Shown here one piece after another: positions 1,644 through 23,634 of a DNA stretch of 64,000 nucleotides (its first letter is position 1; every line of letters begins with the position of its first letter). Both the position numbers and the translations under genes were made by a program. The notes beneath the pieces were generated by a model that was not told where the DNA came from, searched no databases, and worked only from the letters and a program-made list of their open reading frames with translations. This stretch comes from Chloroflexota bacterium. GTDB taxonomy: Bacteria; Chloroflexota; Limnocylindria; P2-11E; CF-107. The stretch lies in assembly GCA_005881435.1 (NCBI GenBank), contig VBHP01000033.1, positions 54,215-118,214 of the forward strand, written 5' to 3'.

Positions 1644-2749
1644 CCGCCCTGCTGCCCGTCCTCCCCGTTGCGATACAACCCCGGTTCGAATTCTTGCGCT
1701 TTCGAGCTGCGCTGCGCCAACATGACGACGGCGACACCCAGTCCGATGAAGATCGCGGCGAACGCCAGCACCTGCGCCTGACCGCTCGCGACCAGCGCGA
1801 CGGCGCCGAGGACGGCGGTGATGACGTAGATCAGGAACACCGCCTGCGCATGCGACAGGCCCACGTCCAGCAGCCGATGGTGAAAGTGGCCGCGGTCCGG
1901 CGCGAACGGCGGACGCCGCTCGAACAGCCGCCGGATGATCACGTAGAAGGTGTCGATGATCGGCACCCCCAGGACCAGGAGGGCCGCGGCGATCTTCGCC
2001 GTGCCGAAGATCGACAGCGTCGCCAGCACCGTGCCGACGAACGTCACGCCCGTCGTGCCGAGGAAGAGCTTCGCCGGATGGACGTTGAAAACGAGGAAAC
2101 CGATGAGCGCGCCGGCGAGCGCGAACTCCATCCACGCCACGAACGGCTCGTTCACCGCGGGTGTCAGCGCGATGAAGCCGAGACAGACGGCGGCGATCGC
2201 CGACACGCCCGCGGCCAGACCGTCAAGGCCGTCGATGAAATTGAGTGCGTTGATCATGCCGACGATCCAGAGGAAGGTCACGGGTATGGAGAGAGCACCA
2301 AGCACGATGATGTGCCGCGGATCGACCGGGTTGTTGACAAACTCGATCCGTACTCCCGCCAGCACCACGATCGCCGCCACCAGTAGCTGACCGGCGAGTT
2401 GCCAGCGGGCGCGCAAGTCGACCAGGTCGTCGAAGAACCCCACCGCCACGCTGACCAGCGCGGCGAGGACGACCAGACGGAAGCGCGACGAGCGCACCTC
2501 CTCGGGAATGAGGACCGGTCCGCCGGAGAGGATGTCGATCGACCAGAAGACCGCGATGGCGAAACCGAAGGCGATGAAGATCGCCAGACCACCCGGACGC
2601 GGGATCGGACGCGGGTGCTTGCGTCTGCCGCCGGGCATATCCAGCAGTTGCAGCCGGTGTGACAGCCGGGCCACGAGGGGCGTCGCGGACATCGCGAAGA
2701 GCAGCGCCAGCACGAACGACCAGACATAGAGCGTGACCTGGCCGCTCAA
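1640..2749 (-). CDS. Glycosyltransferase family 4 (MraY/WecA/TagO family) undecaprenyl-phosphate sugar-1-phosphate transferase
   Basis: 369 aa polytopic membrane protein. Motifs DDLVDLRA, NALNFIDGLDGLAAG and VFLGTTGVTFVG are typical of WecA/TagO-type UDP-GlcNAc:undecaprenyl-P transferases. Confidence 0.85.
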   Translation of the reverse strand: MSGQVTLYVWSFVLALLFAMSATPLVARLSHRLQLLDMPGGRRKHPRPIPRPGGLAIFIAFGFAIAVFWSIDILSGGPVLIPEEVRSSRFRLVVLAALVSVAVGFFDDLVDLRARWQLAGQLLVAAIVVLAGVRIEFVNNPVDPRHIIVLGALSIPVTFLWIVGMINALNFIDGLDGLAAGVSAIAAVCLGFIALTPAVNEPFVAWMEFALAGALIGFLVFNVHPAKLFLGTTGVTFVGTVLATLSIFGTAKIAAALLVLGVPIIDTFYVIIRRLFERRPPFAPDRGHFHHRLLDVGLSHAQAVFLIYVITAVLGAVALVASGQAQVLAFAAIFIGLGVAVVMLAQRSSKAQEFEPGLYRNGEDGQQGG

Positions 2750-2764
2750 CGAATGTCTCTGACG

Positions 2765-3397
2765 TTATCCGGTGCCGAACTGGCGGTCGCCCGCGTCGCC
2801 GAGACCGGGAACGATGTAGCCGCGCTCGTTGAGTCGCTCGTCGAGCGCGCCGACGTGCATGTGCACATCCGGATGCGCCTTGGCCATGGCCTTCGCGCCC
2901 TCGGGCGCGGCGATGATGCCGACGTACTTGATCCGCTTCGCGCCCCAGCGCTCCAGGATGTCGACCGTCGCCGTGGCCGACCCGCCGGTCGCGAGCATCG
3001 GGTCCAGCACCAGGCACAGCTGGGCCGTCGCCGACGCCGGCAGCTTGTTGTAGTACTCGATCGGTCGCAGGGTGCGTTCGTCGCGGAACAACCCGATGTG
3101 CCAGACCTCCGCCTCAGGGATCAGCTCCAGTGCCGCGTCGACCATGCCGATGCCGGCGCGAAGCACAGGGATGAGTCCGACCTTCTGCGCCAGGCGCCAT
3201 CCGGTCGCCGGCGCCAGCGGCGTCTGCACTACGTCACGCCGCAGCTCGAGGTCGGCCGTTGCCTCGTAGAGCAAAAGCATCGCGATCTGGCGCACTAGCG
3301 CCCGAAAATCCGCCGGCGGCGTGGAGCGATCCCGCAGCCGCGTCAGCTTCTCGCGCAGCAACGGATGCGCGCTGACGTGCAGGTTCGGTATGTCCAC
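2765..3397 (-). CDS. upp: Uracil phosphoribosyltransferase
   Basis: 210 aa. Conserved UPRTase segments LIPVLRAGIGMVD, LVLDPMLATGGSA and YIVPGLGDAGDRQFGT. Confidence 0.9.
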   Translation of the reverse strand: MDIPNLHVSAHPLLREKLTRLRDRSTPPADFRALVRQIAMLLLYEATADLELRRDVVQTPLAPATGWRLAQKVGLIPVLRAGIGMVDAALELIPEAEVWHIGLFRDERTLRPIEYYNKLPASATAQLCLVLDPMLATGGSATATVDILERWGAKRIKYVGIIAAPEGAKAMAKAHPDVHMHVGALDERLNERGYIVPGLGDAGDRQFGTG

Positions 3398-3401
3398 CGC
3401 G

Positions 3402-4685
3402 TTATCGGGCGATGCCGGGTACCGGGAAACGCGAGGTCAGCGCCAGCACTTCGTCGGCGACCTGCTTCGCGATGGTGTCGTCGCCGAGGTGCGTCAGCAC
3501 CTTGCCGATGAGTCTTCCGATGTGCTCCATCTCGGCTTCGCGCATGCCGCGCGTCGTCACCGCCGGCGTCCCGATGCGCAGTCCGCTCGCGACCGTGGGC
3601 TTCTGCGGATCGTAGGGAATGGTGTTCTTGTTCACGGTGATCCCGACGCGGTCGAGCGCCTTCTCCGCGTCGCGGCCGGTGGTGTTGAGGGGACGCACGT
3701 CGACGAGCATGAGGTGGTTGTCGGTGCCGCCCGAGACCAGGCGCAGCTTTTCCTTGGCCAGCGTCGTGGACAGGACCTTCGCGTTCTTGACGATCTGCGA
3801 GGCGTACTCCTTGAACGATGGCTCCATGGCTTCCTTCAGCATCACCGCCTTGCCAGCGATGACGTGCATCAGCGGGCCGCCCTGGACGTTCGGGAACACC
3901 GCGGAATCGATCGGCTTCTGCAGCTCCGCGATCGAGAGGATCATCCCGCCGCGCGGTCCGCGGAGGGTTTTATGCGTCGTGGTCGTCACGATCTGCGAGT
4001 GCGGCACCGGCGAGGGATGCGCGCCGCCGGCGACAAGCCCGGCGAAGTGCGCCATGTCGACCATGAGCAGCGCTCCGGTCTCGTCGGCGATCTGTCGCAA
4101 GCGCGGGAAGTCAAAGGTGCGCGGGTACGCCGTCGCGCCGGCGACGATGAGCTTCGGCCGGTGCTCTTTCGCGAGCCGCTCGACCTCGTCGTAGTCGATG
4201 AGCTCAGTGTCCTGGCGGACACCGTACGAGACGAACTTGTAGAGCTTGCCGCTGAAGTTCACCGGCGAGCCGTGCGTCAGATGGCCACCCATATCCAGAC
4301 GCATTCCCAGAACGACGTCTCCGGGCTGCAGCACCGCCGCGTAGGCGGCCATGTTCGCCTGCGCGCCGGCGTGTGGCTGAACGTTCGCGTGCTGCGCGCC
4401 GAACAGCTGCTTGGCGCGCTCGATCGCCAGTGCCTCGGCTTGATCGACCCACTCGCAGCCGCCGTAGTACCGACGGCCGGGATAGCCCTCGGCGTACTTG
4501 TTGGTGAGGACGCTGCCGACGGTCTCCATGACCGCGGCGCTGGTGAAGTTCTCTGAGGCGATGAGCTCGATCTTCTCCAGCTGGCGCCGCTGCTCGCCCT
4601 GGATGATGCGATAGATCTCGGGGTCGGTCTCCCGCAGATCCCTCAAGGCGCCGCGCTCGGCGACGCGCTCTCGTATGTCGGTCAT
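3402..4685 (-). CDS. glyA: Serine hydroxymethyltransferase
   Basis: 427 aa from ATG at 4685 (MTDIRERV...). Motifs [24 protein letters not shown] (PLP-lysine) and VTTRG. Upstream 143 aa of the track ORF are Arg-rich non-coding read-through. Confidence 0.95.
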
Positions 4686-7987: not shown

Positions 7988-8057
7988 CGGCGCGACCTGG
8001 GCCGAGGGCCGGCAGCACGCCGGCTCTCGGCCACGTCATCTCGCGTTGCTTGAAACG

Positions 8058-8090
8058 AAAGGACCCCCGGTTTGTAGCCGAGGGTCCTCG
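8058..8090. terminator. Possible bidirectional hairpin between convergent secreted-protein genes
   Basis: AGGACCC ... 15-nt loop ... GGGTCCT inverted repeat in the 122-nt gap between 7469..7987(+) and 8110..8745(-). Loop is long; weak call. Confidence 0.25.
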
Positions 8091-8109
8091 CGAGGAACGC
8101 CAGAGAGAG

Positions 8110-8745
8110 TTACTTCGAGGCGCCCGACTGGCTGCGCGAGACGAAGAGCGTCTCGCCGTTCTCGAAGGGCGGCTGTGGCCTATCGAAGTCGACAGTGGTA
8201 GTCGGGTTCAAGAACACCTTCAGCTTGATGCCCTCTTCGTCGGTGTTCCCGGCAGGAGCATGAATCCGGCAGTTCACCCAGATTTCACCGTCGGCCTGCA
8301 CCTGTCCCATCGCCGGATTCGTCGTGGTCGCCACGACGTGAAGGCTCATGACGGCGACCCCTCCGCAAAAGTCCGCTGGGAAGGGGCCAGTGTCGCAGCC
8401 GAAGAACGTGAAACTCTTCAAGCTGGTCGCGGTCCACGTGCCGAACGCGACCACCTGACCGGTCGCATCGGTGTGCACGAACGTGCCTCCCCCGGTCGCG
8501 TTCATCGCCGCGGTATTCATCGTGCCGGTCCCGCTCACGCGGACGCTGTGTCCGATGAATGCGCCGCTGTCGGACGCCTTGGCGACGGCTCCGGTCTGGT
8601 TCGGGCCGGCCATGGTCTGGATGAACGCGTCCGAGACGTGCCAGTCGAATTTCGCCGAAGTGTTGACGCTGGCGGCTTGCACGCCGCCGCTCGCGAGGAG
8701 CGATAGTGCGAGCAATAGAGCGAAAATCGGTGCGAATCGTTTCAT
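8110..8745 (-). CDS. Hypothetical secreted protein
   Basis: 211 aa from ATG 8745 (MKRFAPIFALLLALSLLASGGVQAAS), with AGGGAGA RBS about 8 nt upstream. No known domain. Track ORF start at 8868 is unsupported. Confidence 0.6.
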   Translation of the reverse strand: MKRFAPIFALLLALSLLASGGVQAASVNTSAKFDWHVSDAFIQTMAGPNQTGAVAKASDSGAFIGHSVRVSGTGTMNTAAMNATGGGTFVHTDATGQVVAFGTWTATSLKSFTFFGCDTGPFPADFCGGVAVMSLHVVATTTNPAMGQVQADGEIWVNCRIHAPAGNTDEEGIKLKVFLNPTTTVDFDRPQPPFENGETLFVSRSQSGASK

Positions 8746-8763
8746 CGAAAGTGTCTCCCTCAT

Positions 8764-8778
8764 GTTGTTGTTGTTGTT
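8764..8778. repeat. (GTT)5 microsatellite
   Basis: gttgttgttgttgtt lies between the two minus-strand secreted-protein genes. If the upstream start were used it would encode Asn5. Confidence 0.7.
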
Positions 8779-8783
8779 GATCG

Positions 8784-9287
8784 CTACTGCGTGATCGAGA
8801 TATGTCCCGCTGTGAGTGCGCTCATTCCGGTGTCGATGCCGAACGCCGGGATCTGCAGCTGGTGCCACGCCCTCCCTGCGCCTCCGGACCCTTGCGACGA
8901 AATGTACGGAACGTTCGAGTGTGTCTCCGTGTGGATGCCGGATGCGGTCCTGCCGACGACGCGCACGGTCGCGGTGCCGCTGAAGCTCGAGCTGGATCCG
9001 GTGATCGTCAGCGTGCCGGCCGTCACCGACCCTTCCACCTGCATCTGCAAGATGGTCATCCCGCCGAATGGGAACCCGCCCGAACGGCCCGCCATAATGC
9101 AGAGGAAACTGCCGCCGGATCGCGTCGCATGCATCCCGAGTTGCGACGTGACGCCGAGTGGCCCGCCGACGACGCCTCCTCCGTTAACGCTCGGGCCCGC
9201 TGAAGCCAGCGCAGAAACTTGCGCCGCGAGAAGGATCGCCACTGTGGAAAATGTGATCAGTAACGTGCGCGCGGAGTTGTTCGCCAT
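8784..9287 (-). CDS. Hypothetical secreted Gly/Ser/Thr-rich protein
   Basis: 167 aa from ATG 9287 (MANNSARTLLITFSTVAILLAAQVSALA signal peptide). GGGGGAGG RBS 5-8 nt upstream. Confidence 0.55.
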   Translation of the reverse strand: MANNSARTLLITFSTVAILLAAQVSALASAGPSVNGGGVVGGPLGVTSQLGMHATRSGGSFLCIMAGRSGGFPFGGMTILQMQVEGSVTAGTLTITGSSSSFSGTATVRVVGRTASGIHTETHSNVPYISSQGSGGAGRAWHQLQIPAFGIDTGMSALTAGHISITQ

Positions 9288-12462: not shown

Positions 12463-13452
12463 CCGATCGACGCAGAGGCGCCCGTTCGTCTCGCCGATAT
12501 CGAACGCGCGCGCGCCGTCGTCCGGCGCTACCTCAACGTGCCGACGCCACTCGAACCGGCGCCCTTGCTGTCGCGCGAGCTCGGCTGCGAGGTCTGGCTG
12601 AAGCTCGAGACGTTGCACCCGACACGCGCGTACAAAGTGCGCGGCGCTCTGGCGAAGCTGTCGTCGCTGGAGCGCGAGCGGCTCACGCGTGGCGTCGTCG
12701 CGGCGTCGGCGGGCAACCACGGGCAGGCCGTGGCGTGGGCTGCATGGCGCCTCGGCACCAGCGCCGTGATCGTCATGCCCAAGACCGTCGACACCTCGAT
12801 CGTCGAACGCTGCCGCGCCTATGGCGCCGACGTCCGCCTCGCCGGCGACGTCTACGACGACACCCTCGCGCTCGCGCACGAAGTGGAGGAGCGCGACGGG
12901 CGCACGTTCGTACACCCGTACGGCGATCCGATCGTCATCGCCGGGCAGGCAACGATCGGGCTGGAGATCATGGAGCAGCTGCCCGCCGCCCAGGTCGTCG
13001 TTGCCGGCGTCGGGGGCGGCGGGCTGGTCTCAGGGCTCGCGACCGCGCTGAAGACGTCAGGCTGGCGCGGCAAGATCTACGGCGTCGAACCCGAGGGCGC
13101 GGACGCCGTCTCGCGCTCGATCGCGGCCGGGCACGTCATCAGCGTCGATCACCCGTTGTCGATCGCCGACAAGCTCGTGGCCAAGAGCACTCTGCCGATC
13201 ACGCTCGATATCTTCGGACGGTACGTCGACCAGGTGGTGCGAGTGAGCGAGAGGGCCATCGCCGACGCGATGTACGAATACCTGTCGCGACTGTCTCTGC
13301 TCGTCGAGGGCTCAGCCGCGGTCGGCCTCGCCGCATTGCGCGGCGGCCTCATCGATAACCGCGGCCGGCACGTCGTGCTCGTGGTGTCGGGCGCGAACGT
13401 GTCGGCGGAACTGATAGCGCAGATCGTCAGCGAGCGAAGGGCCAGGCGGTGA
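12463..13452 (+). CDS. PLP-dependent threonine/serine dehydratase (fold-type II)
   Basis: LKLETLHPTRAYKVRGA (PLP lysine), AASAGNHGQAVA and GVGGGG. GTG start at 12463 chosen as first in-frame start beyond the antisense tdh overlap; track ORF start 12148 lies inside tdh. Confidence 0.7.
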   Translation, partial: PIDAEAPVRLADIERARAVVRRYLNVPTPLEPAPLLSRELGCEVWLKLETLHPTRAYKVRGALAKLSSLERERLTRGVVAASAGNHGQAVAWAAWRLGTSAVIVMPKTVDTSIVERCRAYGADVRLAGDVYDDTLALAHEVEERDGRTFVHPYGDPIVIAGQATIGLEIMEQLPAAQVVVAGVGGGGLVSGLATALKTSGWRGKIYGVEPEGADAVSRSIAAGHVISVDHPLSIADKLVAKSTLPITLDIFGRYVDQVVRVSERAIADAMYEYLSRLSLLVEGSAAVGLAALRGGLIDNRGRHVVLVVSGANVSAELIAQIVSERRARR

Positions 13453-13856
13453 GTGCCTACGCCGAGCACGTCTCGGTGCGGACCACGAAGAAGGAGCAGG
13501 CACAGGACGTGACAGATCGCGTGCGTGCCGTGGTGCGAAAGAGCAAGGTACGGACGGGCCTCTGCACGGTGGCGGTGCTGCACACCACAGCCGGCGTGTA
13601 CGTCAACGAGAACGCCGACCCCGATGTCCTGACCGACGTGCTCAGCGCGTTGCGGCGCGCGGTGCCGGACGACGCCGGCTATCGACACGCGGAAGGAAAC
13701 GCGCCGGCGCACATCCGTACGGTGCTCACCGGCGCGTCCACGACCGTCCCGGTCGCCGACGGCGACCTGGCGCTCGGCACGTGGCAGGGCATCTTCCTCG
13801 CGGAATTCGACGGCCCGCGCGAGCGGAGAATGCTCGTCACTGTCATCGGCGACTGA
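13449..13856 (+). CDS. YjbQ/UPF0047 family protein (secondary thiamine-phosphate synthase-like)
   Basis: 135 aa. YjbQ signature GLCTVAVLHTTAGV...HIRTVLTGAS. GTGA overlap with upstream gene. Confidence 0.8.
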   Translation: MSAYAEHVSVRTTKKEQAQDVTDRVRAVVRKSKVRTGLCTVAVLHTTAGVYVNENADPDVLTDVLSALRRAVPDDAGYRHAEGNAPAHIRTVLTGASTTVPVADGDLALGTWQGIFLAEFDGPRERRMLVTVIGD

Positions 13857-13908: not shown

Positions 13909-15336
13909 ATGGCGACAGGAACGCTCGTTCGTTCCTCTGCACCGACCGAAGCCGACACCGCTCGCGTCCTGCGCACGGCCCTGTCTCGCGGCGGCGAGTG
14001 GGCCGAGGTCTTCTGGGAGCGACATCGCGTGGTGTCGCTCGTATTCGACGACGGCCGCCTCGAAGAAGCGACCTCGGGGACTGATCAGGGCGCGGGCATC
14101 CGCGTCCTTCTCGGCGAGCGCACCGTGTACGCCGACGGGAACGTCACCGACCTCGACGATCTCACGGCGCTCGCCGGCCGTGCCGCGGGCGCGGTCGGGC
14201 GCGCGGCCACGGCGGGGCCTGCCGACCTGCCGGAAATGACGCGAGTCGAGGTGCTTCCGCCGAGCGAGGTCCGGATCGATCCGCGCGAGGTGCCGATCGA
14301 GCAGAAGGTCCGCATCCTGGAGCTGGCCAACGCCGTCACGCGCGGTCACGACGAGCGGATCAGCCAGGTCACGGTCGTGTATCGCGAGTCGGTCCAGGAC
14401 GTCGTCATCGCCAACGCCGAGGGACGCTTCGCGACCGAGACCCGCGTCCGCTTGGTCTTCGCCGTGAACGCGGTGGCGAAAGCCGGAGCCCTCCAGCAGA
14501 CCGGGTATGAGGCCATCGGCGGCACCGTCGGGTTCGAGCAGATGAGCGAAGATGCTGTCGCCGAGACCGCGCGGACCGCGGCGCGCCGCGCGATCCTGAA
14601 CCTGGAGGCGGAGCCGGCGCCGGCCGGGACCTACATGGTCGTCGTCTCCAGCGAAGCCGGCGGCACCCTGATCCACGAGACCGTCGGACACGGTTTGGAG
14701 GCCGACTTCAACGACCGCGGGCTCTCGGTCTACGCCGGCAAGCTCGGTCAGAAGGTCGCGAGCGAGCTGATCACCGTCATCGACGACGGCAGCATGCCCG
14801 GCAAGCGCGGCACGAACGCGGTCGACGACGAGGGCACGCCGACGCGGCACAACGTGCTGATCGAGAACGGCATCCTGCGGCTGTACCTGACCGACCGCAA
14901 GCACGCCAAGAAGATGGGTCTGCCGCTGAGCGGCAACGCGCGGCGGCAGAGCTTCCGGCACCTGCCGATCCCACGGATGACGACGACGATGATCGCTCCC
15001 GGCAAGACCGATCCGCAGGAGATCATCCGCTCGGTCGAGAGCGGCGTCTTCGTTCGCAAGATGGGCGGCGGCCAGGTCGATCCGGTGAGCGGGCATTTCG
15101 CCTTCGAGATCAGCGAGGGCTACAAGCTGCGCGGCGGCAAGGTCGCCGAGGCCATCCGCGGCGCGACGCTCACGGGACACGCGCCGACGGTGATGAACTC
15201 GATCGACATGGTCGGCAGCGATCTCGGCTTCTCCATCGGCACCTGCGGCAAGGACGGACAGGGCGCGCCGGTGTCCGACGCGCAGCCCACGATCCGCATT
15301 CCCGAGATCGTCATCGGCGGCATCGTCAAGGAATGA
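13909..15336 (+). CDS. tldD: TldD family metalloprotease
   Basis: 475 aa with HExxxH (HETVGHG), the TldD/PmbA C-terminal beta-barrel region and a Gly-rich GGGQ motif. GGGGAGGGGAG RBS upstream. Confidence 0.9.
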   Translation: MATGTLVRSSAPTEADTARVLRTALSRGGEWAEVFWERHRVVSLVFDDGRLEEATSGTDQGAGIRVLLGERTVYADGNVTDLDDLTALAGRAAGAVGRAATAGPADLPEMTRVEVLPPSEVRIDPREVPIEQKVRILELANAVTRGHDERISQVTVVYRESVQDVVIANAEGRFATETRVRLVFAVNAVAKAGALQQTGYEAIGGTVGFEQMSEDAVAETARTAARRAILNLEAEPAPAGTYMVVVSSEAGGTLIHETVGHGLEADFNDRGLSVYAGKLGQKVASELITVIDDGSMPGKRGTNAVDDEGTPTRHNVLIENGILRLYLTDRKHAKKMGLPLSGNARRQSFRHLPIPRMTTTMIAPGKTDPQEIIRSVESGVFVRKMGGGQVDPVSGHFAFEISEGYKLRGGKVAEAIRGATLTGHAPTVMNSIDMVGSDLGFSIGTCGKDGQGAPVSDAQPTIRIPEIVIGGIVKE

Positions 15337-16688
15337 CCGAACGACTGGACAACGATGCCGTCGTCGAACGCGCCCTGGATGAAGTGCGCCGCCGAGACGG
15401 CCTCGAGGCCGAGGCGTATCTCCGCGATTCGCACGGCACCAGCATCGAAGTGATCGAGGGCAAGGTCGAAAGCGCCGAGGTCGAGACGGAGCGCGGCGTC
15501 GGGGTCCGCGTCCTCGATGCCGGTCGCGTCGGGTTCGCCTACACCAGCGACCTGTCGCCGGCCGGCATCGCCGAGTGTGTCGACCTCGCCGTGGCGAACG
15601 CGAGGGTCACCAGCCCGGACGAGTCCATCGCCTTCGCCGCGACGCCGATACCGCCGAACGGCGAGCTGCAGATTTTCGACTCGACGTACGAATCGCACGA
15701 CGTCGCGGAGAAGACCGAGCTGGCGCTGGCGATCGAGGCCGCCGCGCGGCGCGTCGATCCGCGCATCACCTCCTTCTACAAGACCTCCTACGGTGACGGC
15801 GCCGGCGTCACGGTCTTTGCGACCACGGCCGGCGGATACGGCACGTACCGCTCGACTTCGTTCGGCGCGGGCACCGCCTGCGTCGCGACCGAGGGCGAGG
15901 ACAAGCAGATCGGCGGGTTCGGGGATGGCGGCAGGACCTTCGACACGATCGACGCCGAGACCATCGGCGCGGAGGCCGCGCGACGCGCCTTGGAGAAGCT
16001 GCGCGCGCGAACCTTCAAGACGCAGCGCATCGACATCGTTCTCGAGCCGTACCGCGCGATGGAGCTCGTCGGCGCGATCTCGTCGCTCTTCTCCGCCGAG
16101 AACGTGCTCAAGGGCAAGAGCCTGCTCGCGGGAAAGATCGAGCAGCGAGTGGCCAGCGACGTCGTGACGCTGCGCGACGAGGGCCGCCGCATCGGTGGGC
16201 GCGCCACCGCGCCGTTCGACGGCGAGGGCGTCCCCACGCATGATCTCGTGCTGCTCGGCGGCGGGGTGCTGCGTGCGTACCTGCAGTCGATCAAGACCGC
16301 GAACCGCCTCGGCGCGAAGCCGACCGGCAACGCGCGCCGCGGTGGCTACGCCGGCACACCGCACGCCGGGATCTCGAACTTCTACCTCGAAGCCGGCCGA
16401 ACGCGCGCGACCGACCTCGTGCGCGGCGCGGATCGCGCTCTGGCCCTGACCTCGCTGCTGAACCTGCACACGATCGATCCGATCTCGGGCGAGTTCTCGC
16501 TCGGCGCGACGGCGACCTACCTCGAGAAGGGCGTCGCGCAATACCCGGTGAAGGGCATCACCGTCGCGGGCAATCTGATCGCGCTGCTGACCTCGATCGC
16601 CGCCGTGGGCGACGACCTGCGCTTCGGCTCCAGCGGTATCGGCAGCCCCTCGCTTTTGGTGCGAGACGTGTCGGTGGGCGGCGAGTAG
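15333..16688 (+). CDS. tldE: PmbA/TldE family protein (TldD partner)
   Basis: 451 aa TldD/PmbA-family homologue lacking HExxxH. ATGA overlap with tldD indicates a heterodimer operon. Confidence 0.85.
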   Translation: MTERLDNDAVVERALDEVRRRDGLEAEAYLRDSHGTSIEVIEGKVESAEVETERGVGVRVLDAGRVGFAYTSDLSPAGIAECVDLAVANARVTSPDESIAFAATPIPPNGELQIFDSTYESHDVAEKTELALAIEAAARRVDPRITSFYKTSYGDGAGVTVFATTAGGYGTYRSTSFGAGTACVATEGEDKQIGGFGDGGRTFDTIDAETIGAEAARRALEKLRARTFKTQRIDIVLEPYRAMELVGAISSLFSAENVLKGKSLLAGKIEQRVASDVVTLRDEGRRIGGRATAPFDGEGVPTHDLVLLGGGVLRAYLQSIKTANRLGAKPTGNARRGGYAGTPHAGISNFYLEAGRTRATDLVRGADRALALTSLLNLHTIDPISGEFSLGATATYLEKGVAQYPVKGITVAGNLIALLTSIAAVGDDLRFGSSGIGSPSLLVRDVSVGGE

Positions 16689-17624
16689 GTGGCGAGCTGG
16701 CGGGCGTTGCTGCGCGGCGATCCCCTGCCCTGGCTCCTCGAACGCCGCGACGCCCCGGTGCGCGCCGGCGCGCTCGAGCTTATCGAGGAGCGGTCGTCGC
16801 GCGATCCCGAGCTGCGTGAGGCGAAGGCGCGCGCGATGACGTCGCCGCCGATCTCCACGATCCTGAAGCGGCAGTACCCCGACGGCACGTGGGGCGAGGA
16901 CTGGTGGAAGCCGAAGTACACGGCCAGTCACTGGGAGATGCTTCTGCTCGTCGAGTACGGCGCGGATGGCGCGGATCCGCGGGTGCGGCGGGGAGCGCGG
17001 AAGATGCTCGACGCGATGGAGCCGAAGCGCGAGTCGCCGGGCTGGCTGGGCGATCACGGCGTGTCGTGCATCTTCGGGAGTCTGCTGCGCTACCTGTGCC
17101 ACGCCGGCTTCGGTGCGGACGAGCGCGTCGAATGGATCGTCGACCGGCTCGTGCGCGACTCCAAGGTCTTCGAGGCCGGCTGCTACATCAACGGCGATCT
17201 GCCGTGCGCCTGGGGCTACGCCCGGTTGCTGTGGGGCCTTGCCGCGCTGCCGGAGCAGTCGCGCACGCGTGAGGTCGAGCGCACTCTCCGCCGTGGCACC
17301 GAATGGCTGCTGTCGTACAAGCTGGAGCGCGGCGCCTACCCGACGGACTCAGATCCCAGCCACCTGTGGCGCTCGGCGAACTTCCCGCTCTTCTATCAGG
17401 CCGACGTCCTCTTCGTGCTGCGCGTGCTCGCGCAGCTCGACGCGCTCTCGGACACGCGCGCGGCGGGCGCGATCGCGTGGCTGCTGTCGCGGCAGGACGA
17501 GCGCGGTCGGTGGCATGGCCGCGCGCCCTATCTGGATCGCATGCCGTCGAAGATCGACGCCGACAAGTGGATCACACTGCAAGCGGCGCACGTGCTGAAG
17601 AGCGCGTTCCCCGAGGATGGCTAA
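16689..17624 (+). CDS. Alpha/alpha-toroid protein with prenyltransferase/squalene-oxidase repeats
   Basis: 311 aa. Two clear QW-type repeats (ILKRQYPDGTWGEDWW, LLSRQDERGRWHG) matching the PF00432-type consensus. Conserved Cys/His clusters: GDHGVSCIFG, YLCHAGFG, DLPCAWGYA. GTG start immediately after tldE stop. Confidence 0.55.
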   Translation: MASWRALLRGDPLPWLLERRDAPVRAGALELIEERSSRDPELREAKARAMTSPPISTILKRQYPDGTWGEDWWKPKYTASHWEMLLLVEYGADGADPRVRRGARKMLDAMEPKRESPGWLGDHGVSCIFGSLLRYLCHAGFGADERVEWIVDRLVRDSKVFEAGCYINGDLPCAWGYARLLWGLAALPEQSRTREVERTLRRGTEWLLSYKLERGAYPTDSDPSHLWRSANFPLFYQADVLFVLRVLAQLDALSDTRAAGAIAWLLSRQDERGRWHGRAPYLDRMPSKIDADKWITLQAAHVLKSAFPEDG

Positions 17625-18624
17625 GACCGCAGACCGCAATCTCTTGCGCAAGGTCCCGCCGCTCCGGTTCGGCGAGGGCGAGGACATCACGCTGTGCGGC
17701 GCGCTCGCCTCGGCGCTGCAGGCGACCCGTGGAGAGCGCGTCCAGGTATATGACGACGCGGCGGCGGGTTCAGGGATCGCGTTCCAGCTCCGCATCGACG
17801 ATCGCTGGGATCCGGACACGGTGTCACCCCACGCGCCGGACACGACCACGCGCGCCGCGGCCTCGGTTGGACTTCGTGCCGATGTGGTCGAGCCGCCGTT
17901 CGACGACGAGCTGCGCGAGCTCGTGTGGGAGCGGATCGTCGAGAGCGTCGAGGCAGACCTGCCGCCGCTGGCGCGCGGTCTGATGCAGCTGCCCGAGTTC
18001 GGCGTCATCACCGGCTATGACGTGCACGACAAGGTGCTGTTCGCGCGGACCTATGCCGACCACGGCGACGATCCGAGCCGCGTGCTGTTCGCAGACGCGT
18101 TCGCCGGAGAGCGGCCGGCGACGGCGGTGTTCCTCGATCGGGGTCCTCGTCTCGAAGATGTGGCGCTGGCGCGCGAGGCGGCCCGGCGCGCTGTCGAGGT
18201 GAGTGCGCCGGCAACGCGTGAGGTCGACGGCGTGAAGCTCTTTCAGGGCGAAGCCGCGTTCCGGGCCTGGATCGAAGCGCTCGCCGCAGACGTGCCTGGC
18301 CGCGAGGCGGCGCAGCGCGCCTTCGTCGATCACGCGCGTCGCGTGTTCCTGCACGGCGGGCGAAGAGCGGCGGCGCGGTTCCTGCGGCGCATTCGTCGGG
18401 CCTTTCCGGATCGCGTCGGGGCGGATCTCATTCGCGCCGCGGAGGCCTACGGATATGTTGCCGACGAGTGCGAGAAGATCGGCGTCCGCCCCTTCGACGC
18501 GTCGGTCGTCGCCCGGTTCATCGATCCCGGACAACGGCGGGGCTGGATGCATGCGCTCGAGCGCGCAGTGGAGCGCGAACGGGAGGCCGTCGTAGCCCTC
18601 ACGAGCGTCTCTCCCTCCCTCTAA
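17617..18624 (+). CDS. Conserved hypothetical protein (possible Cys-nucleophile hydrolase-like)
   Basis: 335 aa with no confidently recognisable domain. N-terminal GEDITLCGALASAL resembles the Cys motif of papain-like/C39/BtrH-N enzymes; this is inference only. 8-nt overlap with upstream gene. Confidence 0.45.
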   Translation: MAKTADRNLLRKVPPLRFGEGEDITLCGALASALQATRGERVQVYDDAAAGSGIAFQLRIDDRWDPDTVSPHAPDTTTRAAASVGLRADVVEPPFDDELRELVWERIVESVEADLPPLARGLMQLPEFGVITGYDVHDKVLFARTYADHGDDPSRVLFADAFAGERPATAVFLDRGPRLEDVALAREAARRAVEVSAPATREVDGVKLFQGEAAFRAWIEALAADVPGREAAQRAFVDHARRVFLHGGRRAAARFLRRIRRAFPDRVGADLIRAAEAYGYVADECEKIGVRPFDASVVARFIDPGQRRGWMHALERAVEREREAVVALTSVSPSL

Positions 18625-18656
18625 GTGGTGATTGACCGACCGGCGATACTCGACGG

Positions 18657-19121
18657 GTGCTCGAGGACAGCGGACCACAAGAGGACCTGCTCAAAGGGGC
18701 GCTCGCCGGCCTGATCGCTGCCGGCATCTCGGCGGCCGCGTGGGCCGCGATCGCGCTGGTGACCGATAGTCAGTTCGGCATCGTCGCGATCGCGATCGGT
18801 GCGTTCGTCGGCCTCGCCGTGCGCTGGGCCGGGCACGGCCGCTCGATCGCCGCCGGCATCGTCGGCGCGGCCTGCTCGCTGCTCGCGATCGCGGCCGGGA
18901 ACGTTCTCGCCGTCGCCGTCCTGGTCGCCCGCGAACTCGGCGTGCCGCTAACGGACGTCTTAGCGCTGATCGACTTCGACATCGTGTGGCAGGTCCTGAC
19001 CGAGGACTTCTCGTTCCTCGACGGCGTCTTCTACGCCTTCGCGCTGTACGAGGGCTTCCGCTTCGCCCTCGTCCCCGCGCCGAAGATCGCCGCCCCCGCG
19101 CCGCAAGCCCCGATCGCGTAA
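18657..19121 (+). CDS. Small integral membrane protein (3-4 TM)
   Basis: 154 aa with hydrophobic helices (LIAAGISAAAWAAIALV, IVAIAIGAFVGLAV, IVGAACSLLAIAAGNVLAVAVLV). GTG start. Last gene of the tldD-led operon. Confidence 0.5.
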   Translation: MLEDSGPQEDLLKGALAGLIAAGISAAAWAAIALVTDSQFGIVAIAIGAFVGLAVRWAGHGRSIAAGIVGAACSLLAIAAGNVLAVAVLVARELGVPLTDVLALIDFDIVWQVLTEDFSFLDGVFYAFALYEGFRFALVPAPKIAAPAPQAPIA

Positions 19122-21020: not shown

Positions 21021-22640
21021 CTATTTACTGATCGCCCAGAAGTCCGCGTAGGCCATGGGATTCCAGGCGAAGCCCTTGACGTTGGAGCGAAGACCGAAGT
21101 TCTGGCTCGGCTGGTACAGCACCGCGTAAGGGCCGTTGTGCAGCACGTAGTCCGTGATCTCCTTGTACGCCGCGTTGCGCGCGGTCGGGTCGGTGATCAA
21201 CGCCGCCTTCTTGGCCTTGTCGGCGATGCTCGCGTCGTTCCAGCCGTTGCGGAAGGCGATGGACTTCGCCGCGTAGTCGGTGAACGGACCGGCGTTCGCG
21301 TCGGGGTCCGGGAAGTCCGGGCCCCAGAGGATCAGGACCAGCTGGCCGCGCTGCGCGCGATACGTCGTCAGCAGCTCGGCTTGCGTCGTCTGCTTGATCG
21401 TCACGGTCACGCCGATCTTGCCCCAGTCGGCCTGCAGCTTGGCGGCGACGTCCGACCACTGTGTGCCGCCCGGTGCGGGTCCGGTCGGAACGAGGAGCTC
21501 GAGGCTGAAGCCCTTGTCCTGGCCCGCTTCGGCGAGCAACGACTTGGCCTTGGTGATGTCCTGCTGGAACGGTGTGTCGGCGTTGTGCCCGGCGAGGCCG
21601 GCCGGCACGATTCCCTGGACCTTCTTGGCGTTGCCCTTCAAGAGGTCGTTGACGATCCCGTTGTAGTCGATGGCAGTGCGCATGGCCTCACGCACCTTGA
21701 CGTTCTCCAGCGGTTTTACCGTCGCGTTCATACCGACGTACACCAGCTGCAGGCTGTCCGCCTTGAGCGTGGTCACGCCTTGCTTCCCCTGCTCCGCCGC
21801 GATCTGCTGCGGGCTGAGATCGACCGCGACATCGGCATCGCCGCGCTCGAGCGCGAACTGCTGGTTCGTCGACTCGGGCACGTGCTTCACCAGGATCGAC
21901 GAGAGGACCGGCTTGGCGCTGGCGTTCGGGTTGGCTTTGAGCTGGACCTCGGTGGCCTTGGTCCAGTGGTCAATGATGTACGGACCGCTACCGGCGGAGT
22001 GCTCCAGGAGCCAGCCGGAGCCAAAGTCCCCGGCGGTCTCGTGCGTCTTCACTTCCTTCGAATCGACGATGCTGCCGATGGTGAAGGTGAGGATCGACAA
22101 CAGGCCCTGCGCGCTCGCGGTCTTGGGCAGCGTGATCACGACGCTGTTCGCCCCGTTCGCCGCGACGCTCTCCGGCTTCAGCTGTGCGATGTCGGTGAAC
22201 AGGAACGCCGGCGACTTGTTCAGCTTGATCGCGCGCTGGATCGAGTACACGACGTCGTCGGCGGTGACGGCATTGCCGCTCGCGAACTTCGCGCCGGAGC
22301 GAAGATCGAACGAGATCTGCCAGTTGCTACCGGCATCCTTGGTCTCCCACTTCGTGGCGAGACCGGGCTTGAGCGTGCTCAGGTCCGAGCCCTGGAACTG
22401 GACCAGGGTCTCGTAGGCGTTGTGCACGATCAGCGTGCCGCTGAACTCGTACACCACAGCCGGGTCGAGTGAGATGAGATCGCTGACGTCCTTGTAGATC
22501 ACCAGCGTGCCCGCCTGGCCTCCGCCGGACGCGGACGGCGAAGCCGAGCCGCTGGCGCCGGGCGTGCCGGTGGTCGTACAGGCCGCGGCCACCAACAGCG
22601 CTATCGCGAGCAGAATCGCGAGTGGATGCGACCTGGACAT
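21021..22640 (-). CDS. Peptide/nickel ABC transporter substrate-binding lipoprotein (SBP family 5)
   Basis: 539 aa from ATG 22640 (MSRSHPLAILLAIALLVAAAC, lipobox). GGGGGAGG RBS. Family-5 SBP fold (DppA/OppA-like). Track ORF start 23069 is rejected. Confidence 0.85.
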   Translation of the reverse strand: MSRSHPLAILLAIALLVAAACTTTGTPGASGSASPSASGGGQAGTLVIYKDVSDLISLDPAVVYEFSGTLIVHNAYETLVQFQGSDLSTLKPGLATKWETKDAGSNWQISFDLRSGAKFASGNAVTADDVVYSIQRAIKLNKSPAFLFTDIAQLKPESVAANGANSVVITLPKTASAQGLLSILTFTIGSIVDSKEVKTHETAGDFGSGWLLEHSAGSGPYIIDHWTKATEVQLKANPNASAKPVLSSILVKHVPESTNQQFALERGDADVAVDLSPQQIAAEQGKQGVTTLKADSLQLVYVGMNATVKPLENVKVREAMRTAIDYNGIVNDLLKGNAKKVQGIVPAGLAGHNADTPFQQDITKAKSLLAEAGQDKGFSLELLVPTGPAPGGTQWSDVAAKLQADWGKIGVTVTIKQTTQAELLTTYRAQRGQLVLILWGPDFPDPDANAGPFTDYAAKSIAFRNGWNDASIADKAKKAALITDPTARNAAYKEITDYVLHNGPYAVLYQPSQNFGLRSNVKGFAWNPMAYADFWAISK

Positions 22641-22755
22641 GGAAGCCTCCCCCATACGCTTTTCGTCAGGTGACACGAGGCTAGGTAGCGCCCCGGTCAC
22701 CGTCAACGACTGTGTGCAGCTTGCCGCACCTGCTCTCGGAACGGAAGATGGCACG

Positions 22756-23634
22756 GTGACTCTTCCCAGTACCGCGACCCGGCCGGTTTCGCTCACCGCC
22801 GAGGAGGCTGCGGTCATCACCGCCGAGATCCACCGCCGGCGCGCCGAGGCCGAGCGCTGGCTGCAGACGGACCCGACGTCGTACCTCGCGACGACCGAGC
22901 GGCATGATTTCGAGCGCCGCGTGGTGCTGACGGTAGGCAGCGGCTCAGCTGCCGACGTCCGCATCGACGATCCGGCGCTCCACGCCCAGCACCTGACCGT
23001 GACGGCGCTCGAGGACGGTTTCCGTATCGAAGCCGCCGCGCCGGCGGCCACGTTCAAGATCGGGGACACCGTGGTGCGACAGGGTGTCCTGAGCTCCGGC
23101 TTCGTCGAGCTTGGGCGGTATCGATTGCGGCTGTCGCATCAGGGCTTCCCCGCGATCGTGGTGCTGGACCGCGAGAAAGTCCGCCTCGCCGGGGTCGTGC
23201 GGCCGCGGTACTTCCCGGTCGATCTCTCCTATCGGTACGTGGTGCCGCTCACGGCCGCCGCGCGCGCCGAGCCGGTCGTGATCCTCTCGACGCGCGGTCA
23301 CCAACGACGTGCGCTTCGCGCCGGCTGGTTCGACCTCGAGATCGCGGGCACGTCCTGCCGCGTCGAGGCCGTGCGTCTCCTCGAGCCGGGCGTCGGCGAC
23401 AGCGCGTACGGGCTGTACTTCCGCGACCTGACCACCGAGCACGAGACCTATCCGGTCGGGCGCTATCTCGATCCCGAGGAGCTGCCGGATGGGACGTATC
23501 TGATCGACTTCAACCTCGCCTACAACCCGGCCTGCGCCTTCTCGCCGCACTACAACTGCCCAATACCGACGCGCGAGAACACCCTTCCGATCCAGATCCG
23601 CGCCGGCGAGATGACGCCCGAAGGAGCGCACTGA
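22756..23634 (+). CDS. DUF1684 domain protein
   Basis: C-terminal YNPACAFSPHYNCPIPTRENTLPIQIRAGE is the DUF1684 signature. Start uncertain: GTG 22756 or 22714, or ATG 22639 which would overlap the divergent SBP start codon. Confidence 0.6.
   Translation: MTLPSTATRPVSLTAEEAAVITAEIHRRRAEAERWLQTDPTSYLATTERHDFERRVVLTVGSGSAADVRIDDPALHAQHLTVTALEDGFRIEAAAPAATFKIGDTVVRQGVLSSGFVELGRYRLRLSHQGFPAIVVLDREKVRLAGVVRPRYFPVDLSYRYVVPLTAAARAEPVVILSTRGHQRRALRAGWFDLEIAGTSCRVEAVRLLEPGVGDSAYGLYFRDLTTEHETYPVGRYLDPEELPDGTYLIDFNLAYNPACAFSPHYNCPIPTRENTLPIQIRAGEMTPEGAH

Follow-up and report, generated by a model that had tools for sequence, protein, structure and literature searches.

In the window, by which we mean the whole stretch of 64,000 nucleotides that was analysed, a string of five genes found in a soil Chloroflexi genome starts with tldD and tldE and continues with the genes of a 311-aa toroid protein, a 335-aa protein (hyp335) and a 154-aa membrane protein (mem154). 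With moderate confidence, we interpret this string as a composite operon that is restricted to the class Limnocylindria (Chloroflexota), and not as a RiPP-type gene cluster. Within it, tldD-tldE-toroid and hyp335-uppP would each form a tightly coupled sub-unit, and the two would be held together by shared descent and co-transcription, with no single obligate pathway. The preliminary description of this DNA had considered the five-gene arrangement undescribed, and literature searches indeed turned up no description of it. In the ORF check, the five proposed reading frames were all present with the coordinates and overlaps listed here.

13449..13856, + strand: yjbQ (UPF0047), conserved upstream neighbour, listed as context; Pfam UPF0047 E 4e-44
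13909..15336, + strand: tldD, 475 aa, catalytic subunit of an M103 heterodimeric metalloprotease
14674..14691, + strand: zinc-binding motif HETVGH of TldD, residues 256-261, a regular-expression match that aligns with E. coli HEAVGH
15244..15246, + strand: Cys446 of TldD in GTCGKDGQ, aligning with GVCGKEGQ of E. coli TldD
15333..16688, + strand: tldE/pmbA, 451 aa, non-catalytic partner subunit, ATGA overlap with tldD
16689..17624, + strand: toroid gene, 311 aa, GTG start, cytoplasmic toroid with one (α/α)6 domain, family uncharacterised
16872..16892, + strand: toroid QW-type motif 1, Q62-W68, QYPDGTW; in close homologues, Q62 is invariant and W68 reaches at least 90%
17067..17069, + strand: toroid Cys127 (DHGVSC), near-invariant, N-terminus of helix 126-138
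17181..17183, + strand: toroid Cys165, near-invariant
17205..17207, + strand: toroid Cys173 (PCAWG), near-invariant, N-terminus of helix 174-185
17493..17513, + strand: toroid QW-type motif 2, Q269-W275, QDERGRW, invariant among close homologues
17617..18624, + strand: hyp335, 335 aa, modelled two-part fold of the AziU3/CcbD/CtaG (BtrH-like) type
17695..17697, + strand: hyp335 Cys27 ('LCGALASAL'), unconserved; C, G, A or P occur in this column
18657..19121, + strand: mem154, 154 aa, GTG start, small membrane protein

The junctions were read directly from the sequence. tldD and tldE share an ATGA overlap, the tldE stop codon TAG abuts the GTG of the toroid gene without a spacer, and the toroid gene and hyp335 overlap by 8 nt, ATGGCTAA, so that the ATGA and 8-nt overlaps link all four genes from tldD to hyp335 in the window. 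The 154-aa ORF follows hyp335 after 32 nt. yjbQ is found before tldD in nearly all related loci and probably forms, together with the PALP gene, a transcription unit separate from the tldD string.

The TldD/TldE pair

The earlier assignment of tldD and tldE as a translationally coupled pair is borne out by the ATGA junction and by profile and sequence matches: all three PmbA_TldD domains are present in TldD and in TldE (Pfam, E 1e-13 to 1e-67), and residues 17-472 of the window TldD align with E. coli TldD (5nj5_A, E 2.4e-97). The NCBIfam matches of TldD to TldD (E 1e-103, 347 bits, equivalog cut-off 513) and of TldE to PmbA (E 6e-53, 180 bits, equivalog cut-off 438) remain under the equivalog cut-offs, which is expected in so distant a phylum. 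Going by the E. coli structure, Cys446 of TldD is presumably the third metal ligand; a motif search of the window TldE gave no HExxxH. Judged from its sequence, the pair is a canonical M103 pair with a TldD of the peptidase type, which would act as the usual general peptidase on unfolded peptides. It resembles E. coli TldD/TldE (PmbA) in the three-domain architecture of both subunits, in the presence of HExxxH and the GxC cysteine in TldD alone, and in the adjacent, translationally coupled genes, but differs from it in being extended by two more coupled genes. About 60% of bacterial genomes encode TldD/E, for the most part away from biosynthetic clusters (PMC10885120).

The 311-aa toroid protein

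The 311-aa protein is a cytoplasmic single-domain (α/α)6 toroid from a large, uncharacterised family, and matches Pfam SQHop_cyclase_C with an E of 3.9e-6 and 26.6 bits (cut-off 26.1). Family conservation was defined by columns reaching at least 90% in 47 sequences of 24-63% identity. Both QW-type motifs noted earlier are present and conserved across the family, in which W68 as well as G273 and W275 reach at least 90%. Three Cys/His clusters had also been proposed, of which DHGVSC (C127) and PCAWG (C173) are near-invariant, whereas CHAGFG is unconserved even in close homologues, where the consensus is AGYG; the third near-invariant cysteine is instead C165, which the earlier account lacked. 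Helices 126-138 and 174-185 would be consecutive inner helices according to a periodicity of about 48 residues, and the conservation of the cysteines together with these helix positions suggests that the central cavity contains either a metal site, probably for zinc, or a thiol site; the toroid would accordingly be an enzyme or a binding protein in its own right. Among the closest known systems are class II terpene cyclases, protein prenyltransferase β subunits and LanC-type cyclases, all of them (α/α)6 toroid enzymes.

The 335-aa protein

A Pfam search with the 335-aa protein returned zero matches, but it is confidently modelled as an AziU3/CcbD/CtaG (BtrH-like) fold with a papain-like N-terminal domain and a helical C-terminal domain. 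In this model, Cys27 opens the first helix (25-33) and occupies the nucleophile position of papain-like enzymes, and the 'LCGALASAL' cysteine had earlier been compared with that of papain/C39-like proteins. However, many family members have G, A or P in its column, none of the Cys or His columns of the family alignment reaches 90%, and no conserved Cys-His-acid triad is found in the family; Cys27 is therefore not a family-wide catalytic residue. In CtaG, by comparison, the catalytic residues are Cys11-His128-Asp144 (PMC12865890), while CcbD has a Cys-His-Glu triad and binds its carrier protein through Arg residues of the C-terminal region (PMC12945683). The helical domain of hyp335 is Arg-rich, with conserved R242, R249, R250, R257, R260, R273, R300, R307 and R308, which suggests an acidic partner. 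The thioester ping-pong chemistry of CcbD/CtaG would be closed to hyp335, which is more likely a binding or scaffold protein or may carry out other chemistry.

CcbD/LmbD, CtaG, BtrH and AsbE are papain-like, carrier-protein-dependent transacylases that form amides, whereas hyp335 lacks a conserved Cys, His and acidic triad, and its identity to CcbD/CtaG-type enzymes is 8-16% with no match at the sequence level. Unlike in their systems, the annotated loci L001, L002 and L166-L168 have no carrier-protein or adenylation gene called beside the string; in L001/L002 the nearest PP-binding gene lies more than 5 kb downstream of the string. To AziU3, part of the AziU3/U2 aziridine synthase of the azinomycin pathway, hyp335 shows 13-16% identity, but neither an AziU2-like partner nor azinomycin-type pathway genes are present. 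The chemistry ascribed to AziU3/U2 is sulfate elimination.

Synteny within Limnocylindria

Synteny was examined in 80 metagenome loci selected by hyp335. Coincidental adjacency had been the expectation should the toroid and hyp335 genes never be syntenic with tldDE in related genomes, yet the order yjbQ-tldD-tldE-toroid-hyp335 recurs in Limnocylindria. The toroid gene lies upstream of hyp335 in 41 of 43 informative loci, tldE immediately upstream of the toroid gene in 31/33, and the tldD-tldE-toroid set is complete in 25 of 27. The median gaps are 3 nt between tldE and the toroid gene, 29 nt between the toroid gene and hyp335, and 24 nt between hyp335 and uppP. The first of these spacings is near-universally 0-3 nt (about 46 loci, 60-65% protein identity), and the gaps reach at most 97 nt at 46 tldE-toroid junctions and 110 nt at 74 hyp335-uppP junctions, too little for an inserted gene. 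Between the toroid gene and hyp335, PIN toxin-antitoxin pairs are located in 15 loci.

The link of hyp335 to uppP is, in most relatives, tighter than its link to the toroid gene, and uppP (bacA) follows hyp335 immediately in 63 of 63 loci. The toroid, which resembles terpenoid cyclases and prenyltransferases, and the Arg-rich hyp335 might act with the undecaprenyl-diphosphatase UppP on a lipid carrier or lipid-linked intermediate in an envelope or polyprenyl-phosphate role, with tldDE as a mere upstream neighbour, which we regard as very unlikely. The context downstream of hyp335 varies between uppP, a pterin-4a dehydratase gene, and mem154 with an Opp transporter.

A purely inherited adjacency, in which four functionally unrelated genes came to be co-transcribed through a historical accident in the ancestor of Limnocylindria, is rather improbable. 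It would fit the synteny of the whole neighbourhood, from SHMT to the acyl-CoA ligase/acyltransferase gene, between genomes at about 64% identity, and also the limitation of the linkage to one class and the independent losses described below. However, the block from yjbQ to hyp335 is intact while both flanks are rearranged between subclades, and tldD, tldE and the toroid gene are not split by a gene-sized insertion in any locus. The short tldE-toroid spacing and the survival of the block through flank rearrangement suggest selection for co-expression. Since all informative loci come from one class, inherited order and selection are statistically inseparable.

Losses, loci outside the class and the RiPP reading

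Either tldDE or the toroid gene can be lost separately by natural deletion with the rest intact. L141 has kept tldDE and hyp335-uppP with a degraded remnant of the toroid gene, and in L093 tldE abuts hyp335. In L110 and L152, tldDE is missing beside an intact toroid gene with all conserved residues, and a remnant of the tldE 3' end remains in L110. Genomes without tldDE beside the toroid gene may have a copy elsewhere. Beyond Limnocylindria, neither tldD nor tldE nor hyp335 lies within 8 kb of the toroid gene in 80 loci that encode relatives of the toroid at about 35% identity (other Chloroflexota classes, Actinomycetota and one Terriglobales), and these loci have no recurrent neighbour family; the nearest outgroup toroid member, P0160, is also unlinked to tldDE.

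The cluster logic of RiPP systems, to which the five genes had been likened, is unsupported, though conceivable. The earlier statement that no precursor-peptide ORF is visible holds, since no gap within the string exceeds 52 nt, which leaves no room for one. Pfam and NCBIfam profile searches found no recognition domain or class-defining RiPP enzyme, and there were no matches to RiPP or defence families. The independent losses and the unlinked toroid outside the class likewise argue against it.

Comparison with lincosamide clusters

The lincosamide clusters (lmb/ccb) contain CcbD/LmbD together with the PmbA_TldD-superfamily pairs LmbIH/CcbIH and LmbQ/CcbQ (PMC4351081). They resemble the string in combining a CcbD-fold protein and TldD/E-family proteins in one locus, and thus provide a precedent for a joint pathway, but they also encode an adenylation enzyme, carrier proteins, and sugar-pathway and mycothiol-related enzymes (PMC4351081), none of which is present here, and CcbD is catalytically active there (PMC12945683). 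In an amended form of the earlier idea, the string could be a dedicated processing module whose components, TldD/E, the three-cysteine toroid and the BtrH-fold protein, share a substrate, which could be a peptide or else a thiol- or amide-linked small molecule. Through a zinc-thiolate site like those of LanC and protein prenyltransferases, the toroid would modify or retain a substrate that contains Cys or is hydrophobic. hyp335 would deliver the substrate or serve as a scaffold, and trimming or deacylation would fall to TldD/E, as it does in the lincosamide pathway; N-deacetylases of the TldD/E type are mentioned in a review (PMC10885120). The near-universal tldE-toroid junction with its full sets within the class, the overlaps across the four window genes, the near-invariant toroid cysteines, the modelled hyp335 fold, the lincosamide precedent and the N-deacetylases of that review are in favour of such a module. 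We nevertheless consider it unlikely, given a string that encodes no precursor, carrier protein, adenylating enzyme or RiPP-defining enzyme, a hyp335 without a catalytic triad, a TldD sequence of canonical peptidase type, independently lost parts, toxin-antitoxin pairs that interrupt toroid-hyp335, and zero linkage outside the class.

The 154-aa membrane protein

The membrane protein had been counted as part of the system, but falls outside the conserved set of the composite operon and is a local addition confined to near relatives of the window. Only the window and one near relative, L086, have mem154 behind hyp335; L166-L168 and the remaining 79 hyp335 loci (L087-L165) lack it. A Pfam search gave zero matches; its hydrophobic stretches, with Kyte-Doolittle 19-residue means of up to 2.2, and its homologues, of which there are only eight, with identities of 59-99%, indicate that it is a real gene.

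Organisation of the tldD-tldE gene string

The genes around tldD and tldE best fit a class-restricted composite operon of two parts. The first part would be a canonical tldD-tldE pair to which the gene of a small toroid protein is tightly appended, and the second hyp335, the gene of a 335-aa protein, together with uppP in most relatives; the two parts would be co-linear by descent, and their co-transcription is probable. The following genes of the window are considered here:

13449-13856 (+): yjbQ (UPF0047)
13909-15336 (+): tldD
15333-16688 (+): tldE
16689-17624 (+): toroid, (α/α)6 protein of 311 aa
17617-18624 (+): hyp335, protein of 335 aa
18657-19121 (+): mem154, membrane protein of 154 aa
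19125-23069 (-): Opp/Dpp-type ABC transporter (two permeases and a family-5 solute-binding protein), converging on the operon
22507-23634 (+): DUF1684 protein, between the Opp transporter and a methyltransferase/SDR pair

All five ORFs proposed in the preliminary description, from tldD to mem154, were recovered with exactly the same boundaries in this window, which has a G+C content of about 68%. The translational coupling of tldD and tldE put forward there agrees with the ATGA overlap, which was read directly at the junction, as was the following junction, where the tldE stop codon TAG (16686-16688) is succeeded by the GTG start of the toroid gene without a spacer. The toroid and hyp335 ORFs share 8 nt (ATGGCTAA), and the intergenic gaps along the string amount to 52, 0, -8 and 32 nt, the last of which precedes the mem154 ORF. 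A soil MAG named 'Chloroflexi bacterium' encodes a protein with 100% identity to the toroid, whose close relatives carry the names Limnocylindria or Limnocylindrales, a class within Chloroflexota. The promoter scan yielded 0 promoter-like sites and the terminator scan a single one, inside tldD, which is uninformative as shuffled sequence gives more. Regulatory RNA families and tRNA were not found in the whole window. An anti-phage defence system was considered and rejected, as none of six proteins had a PADLOC match.

The TldD/TldE pair and the question of a RiPP cluster

TldD and TldE each comprise the first, second and third PmbA_TldD domains (Pfam, E 1e-13 to 1e-67). The NCBIfam matches to TldD (E 1e-103) and PmbA (E 6e-53) both score under the equivalog cut-offs, as is expected for a distant phylum. 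In the comparison with PDB sequences, TldD residues 17-472 align with E. coli TldD (5nj5_A, E 2.4e-97); HETVGH at residues 256-261 is aligned with HEAVGH of the E. coli enzyme, and the segment GTCGKDGQ, which holds a single cysteine, with GVCGKEGQ of 5nj5_A. We take this GxC cysteine to be the third metal ligand. A motif search found no HExxxH in TldE. Judged from sequence, the pair is a canonical catalytic TldD with a non-catalytic TldE; the two genes are adjacent and overlap, and their products would form the predicted heterodimer protease. TldD/E occur in about 60% of bacterial genomes, are usually encoded outside biosynthetic clusters and are thought to have other cellular roles, while their native substrates are largely unknown except for a few RiPP and toxin-antitoxin cases (reviewed in PMC10885120).

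A RiPP-type cluster logic, which had been suggested for the string, did not hold up. No precursor-peptide gene was found in or beside it: since the intergenic gaps do not exceed 52 nt, there is no room for a precursor ORF within the string, and its flanks in the window are yjbQ and an Opp permease, in agreement with the earlier remark that no such ORF is visible. RiPP-defining enzymes and recognition domains such as YcaO, radical SAM, LanB/C/M and RRE were absent as well (Pfam and NCBIfam, E ≤0.1), and the only RiPP-named match, ApyS, was discarded as noise (E 0.074; 12 bits, cut-off 400). A RiPP precursor may be encoded elsewhere.

Conservation of the gene string within Limnocylindria

Three loci with toroid homologues of 63-64% identity (L001-L003) share the gene order PALP-yjbQ-tldD-tldE-toroid-hyp-uppP(bacA)-SDR, and the surrounding synteny extends over more than 15 kb. 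When metagenomes were scanned with the hyp335 alignment, 80 loci emerged (L086-L165), which were searched by tblastn with the window proteins. The toroid gene lies upstream of hyp335 in 41 of the 43 loci with at least 2 kb of upstream sequence and is itself directly preceded by tldE in 31/33; tldD, tldE and the toroid gene are complete in 25 of the 27 loci that extend 5 kb or more upstream, so that the toroid gene is syntenic with tldDE within the class and the gene neighbourhood is conserved in relatives. Directly downstream of hyp335, uppP was found in 63/63 loci. The median gaps are 3 nt between tldE and the toroid gene, 29 nt between the toroid gene and hyp335, and 24 nt between hyp335 and uppP, and no gene-sized gap occurs at the first or the last of these junctions (largest 97 and 110 nt). 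The toroid/hyp335 junction holds a PIN toxin-antitoxin pair, a PIN-domain toxin gene preceded by the gene of a partner of about 74 aa, in 15 loci of L086-L165 (e.g. L095, 6753-7169) and appears to be a recurrent toxin-antitoxin insertion site in many Limnocylindria lineages. Such a pair is also present at this junction in L002 (8983-9626) and L003 (8678-9321). In one relative, L166, yjbQ and tldD are separated by a BTAD-domain gene and an ORF of 79 aa (3361-4126).

Natural deletions were found in five of the loci. In L093 and L141, tldE is directly followed by hyp335, and the gap of 170 nt in L141 (7830-8001) encodes a degraded toroid remnant (…LIRDSKR…INEATTILKHSFPD, then stop). In L110 and L152, yjbQ is directly followed by an intact toroid gene with all conserved residues, and in L110 part of the 3' end of tldE is left as a remnant at 1455-1595 (…VIAELSVGGV, then stop). 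L092 retains hyp335-uppP-SDR with none of the other string genes within 8 kb upstream. The remnants in L141 and L110 document recent, independent deletions, and from the separate deletions in the five loci it follows that string genes can be lost singly.

The gene set is thus kept within one class while its parts are lost separately, and outside this class it is absent. The family motif P[SN]KW[VI]TLRA was used to scan species-representative genomes and gave 80 loci, from every class of Chloroflexota, from Actinomycetota and from a single genome of Terriglobales; these loci sample a paralogous toroid subfamily. None of tldD, tldE, hyp335, mem154 and yjbQ lies within 8 kb of these loci, and clustering of the neighbouring ORFs revealed no recurrent partner, the largest non-toroid cluster covering 11 loci. 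P0160, the nearest outgroup toroid (40% identity), shows no linkage to tldDE. As paralogs, the 80 unlinked loci reveal that the family as a whole, here named the Cys3 toroid family, has no fixed tie to TldD/E, but they are no evidence for independence of the orthologue in Limnocylindria. Tandem toroid paralogs are frequent, with duplicates or triplicates in L020, L024, L025, L039, L060, L070 and L075 (Anaerolineae and further Chloroflexota); this points to an expansion of the family by paralogy. In L027, a contig of an uncultured actinomycete, inverted toroid paralogs at 1899-2906 (-) and 7998-9005 (+) are embedded in mirror-image sets of the same gene clusters, as if several kb had been duplicated in inverted orientation.

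A functional coupling of TldD/E and the toroid, as opposed to mere co-linearity by descent, is favoured by the spacer-free junction, which is kept at about 60-65% identity, and by the persistence of the block although both flanks have been reshuffled. However, the deletions are independent, the linkage is absent beyond the class and insertions part the toroid gene from hyp335, all of which argues against an obligate coupling.

The Cys3 toroid family

The sole Pfam match of the toroid is SQHop_cyclase_C, with 26.6 bits against a gathering threshold of 26.1 bits (E 3.9e-6). In an exhaustive search of cluster representatives, the family comprised 875 clusters (50% identity) at E ≤1e-3 and 308 at E ≤1e-10, with members mostly of 300-350 aa. 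Scored in 47 members with 24-63% identity, the near-invariant residues are W15, L16, P22, R25, W68, W82, C127, C165, C173, W227, P233, D239, G273, W275, W294 and T296. The family signature consists of a length of 300-350 aa, an N-terminal WLLE...R, two QW motifs, C127/C165/C173 and a C-terminal KW(I/V)T, and the toroid shows all of these features. The two QW repeats noticed earlier are real and conserved in the alignments of homologues. Among the three Cys/His clusters described with them, DHGVSC and PCAWG hold conserved cysteines, whereas CHAGFG is not conserved; the third conserved cysteine is C165, which had been overlooked. C127 and C173 are located at the N-termini of the helices 126-138 and 174-185, respectively. 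From the periodicity of about 48 residues we infer that these are consecutive inner helices, and C127 and C173 would then meet at the central cavity.

The toroid has neither a signal peptide nor a hydrophobic segment. It shares the QW repeats with the squalene-hopene cyclase type but differs from it in that no DxDD general-acid motif was seen when the sequence was read by eye, and in its build as one 311-aa domain in place of the two-domain βγ architecture; the TIGR squalene cyclase models reach 11-19 bits against cut-offs of 323-851. A LANC_like profile match with a Cys-Cys-His zinc site was not found for the toroid. Domain fusions were dismissed as a clue to its role, as the GNAT, DeoC and HTH/TPR fusions are one-offs without a consistent hint. 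The only clean fusion among 150 listed cluster representatives is P0159, a protein of 455 aa with a GNAT acetyltransferase domain N-terminal to a full toroid domain.

hyp335, a triad-less papain-like protein

hyp335 has no match in Pfam or NCBIfam, and its profile found nothing among the PDB sequences at E ≤1 (one noise match, E 1.7); a word-indexed search returned 36 homologues. The modelled structure has a two-part fold with a papain-like N-domain and a helical C-domain. The papain/C39-like context that the preliminary description had recognised in LCGALASAL thus fits the fold, but the catalytic cysteine is not conserved. Cys27 lies at the start of the first helix, the place expected for the nucleophile, yet its column holds C, G, A or P in the family, and among 34 members neither a cysteine nor a histidine column attains 90% conservation; the family therefore generally cannot use thioester chemistry. 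A papain/C39-type cysteine protease was rejected for the same reasons, despite the matching fold. Conserved residues are S52, D65, D89, D96, E127, T145 and Y146 in the N-domain, which are acidic or polar, and the arginines R242, R249, R250, R257, R260, R273, R300, R307 and R308 of the C-terminal helices.

Among the reference enzymes, CtaG, BtrH and AsbE are papain-like ligases that depend on a carrier protein and combine a Cys-His-Asp triad with a helical C-domain (PMC12865890). CcbD has Cys-His-Glu and a ping-pong mechanism, and its C-terminal arginines bind its carrier protein (PMC12945683). In its model, hyp335 has the two-part fold in common with the BtrH/CcbD/CtaG transacylases, whereas no Cys-His-Asp/Glu triad is conserved in its family. 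Solely by likeness to CcbD, its conserved arginines may be read as a surface for an acidic partner. No PP-binding gene was called beside the string in L001, L002 and L166-L168; L086-L165 were screened by tblastn with ten specific query proteins, PP-binding genes not among them. A large gene whose product combines AMP-binding, PP-binding and acyltransferase domains (L001, 14596-16948; L002, 15012-16951) forms the right end of the main-clade syntenic block, more than 5 kb downstream of the string, and contains the sole carrier-protein domain near hyp335 in these two loci.

Possible role and significance of the gene string

Overall, the folds and the synteny within the class proposed in the preliminary description stand, whereas its catalytic cysteine, its unit of five genes and its RiPP logic do not. 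Its view that the arrangement is undescribed is shared here, as no published description was found in open-access papers and preprints. It is rather unlikely that TldD/E, the Cys3 (probably zinc) toroid and the triad-less hyp335 constitute a dedicated pathway for one substrate in Limnocylindria; this substrate would be a peptide or a thiol- or lipid-linked small molecule, encoded or made elsewhere. Lincosamide clusters hold CcbD together with TldD/E-superfamily pairs (PMC4351081) and offer the nearest precedent for the CcbD fold and TldD/E acting in one pathway, which keeps the hypothesis of a joint module alive. If true, the pathway would represent a new type of TldD/E-dependent modification system, whereas the locus would be an ordinary housekeeping operon if the coupling is merely historical.

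The locus is of interest chiefly for two protein families that are still uncharacterised, and as a possible entry point to what TldD/E natively does. Newly defined are a large family of small toroids with three near-invariant cysteines, often in tandem in Chloroflexota and Actinomycetota, and, within the CcbD/CtaG/AziU3 fold that was recognised only recently, a branch that lacks the triad; either could carry out new chemistry or act as pseudo-enzymes. A partner gene that follows tldE without a spacer throughout a class of abundant soil bacteria would, provided that the coupling is functional, be a rare genetic handle on TldD/E.

mem154 and the region downstream of hyp335

mem154 is hydrophobic, and its 8 homologues include four full-length ones; with 59-99% identity to these it can be regarded as a real gene. 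It adjoins hyp335 only in the window and in L086, an 87% identical relative; the remaining 79 hyp335 loci lack it, as do L166-L168, so that a unit of five genes is not supported. In the subclade of the window (L166-L168, hyp335 57-68% identical), tldD-tldE-toroid-hyp335 is followed by pterin-4a dehydratase, methyltransferase and SDR genes, without uppP, whereas in the window mem154, the convergent Opp-type ABC transporter and the DUF1684 gene separate hyp335 from the methyltransferase/SDR pair. Because the gene content differs between the window and its relatives, the downstream side of hyp335 is a variable spot; the left flank beyond PALP also varies between subclades. The placement of the Opp/Dpp transporter beside the peptidase operon is lineage-specific, since relative to the L166-type order only the window has it. 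At its N-terminus the DUF1684 protein weakly matches an FHA-like (Yop-YscD_cpl) domain, with a score below the threshold. P0310, a protein of 107 aa on a short contig, combines a fragment that matches PF01066 (CDP-alcohol phosphatidyltransferase) with the C-terminal half of mem154 (96% identity) and reflects either the breakpoint of a rearrangement or a chimeric assembly.
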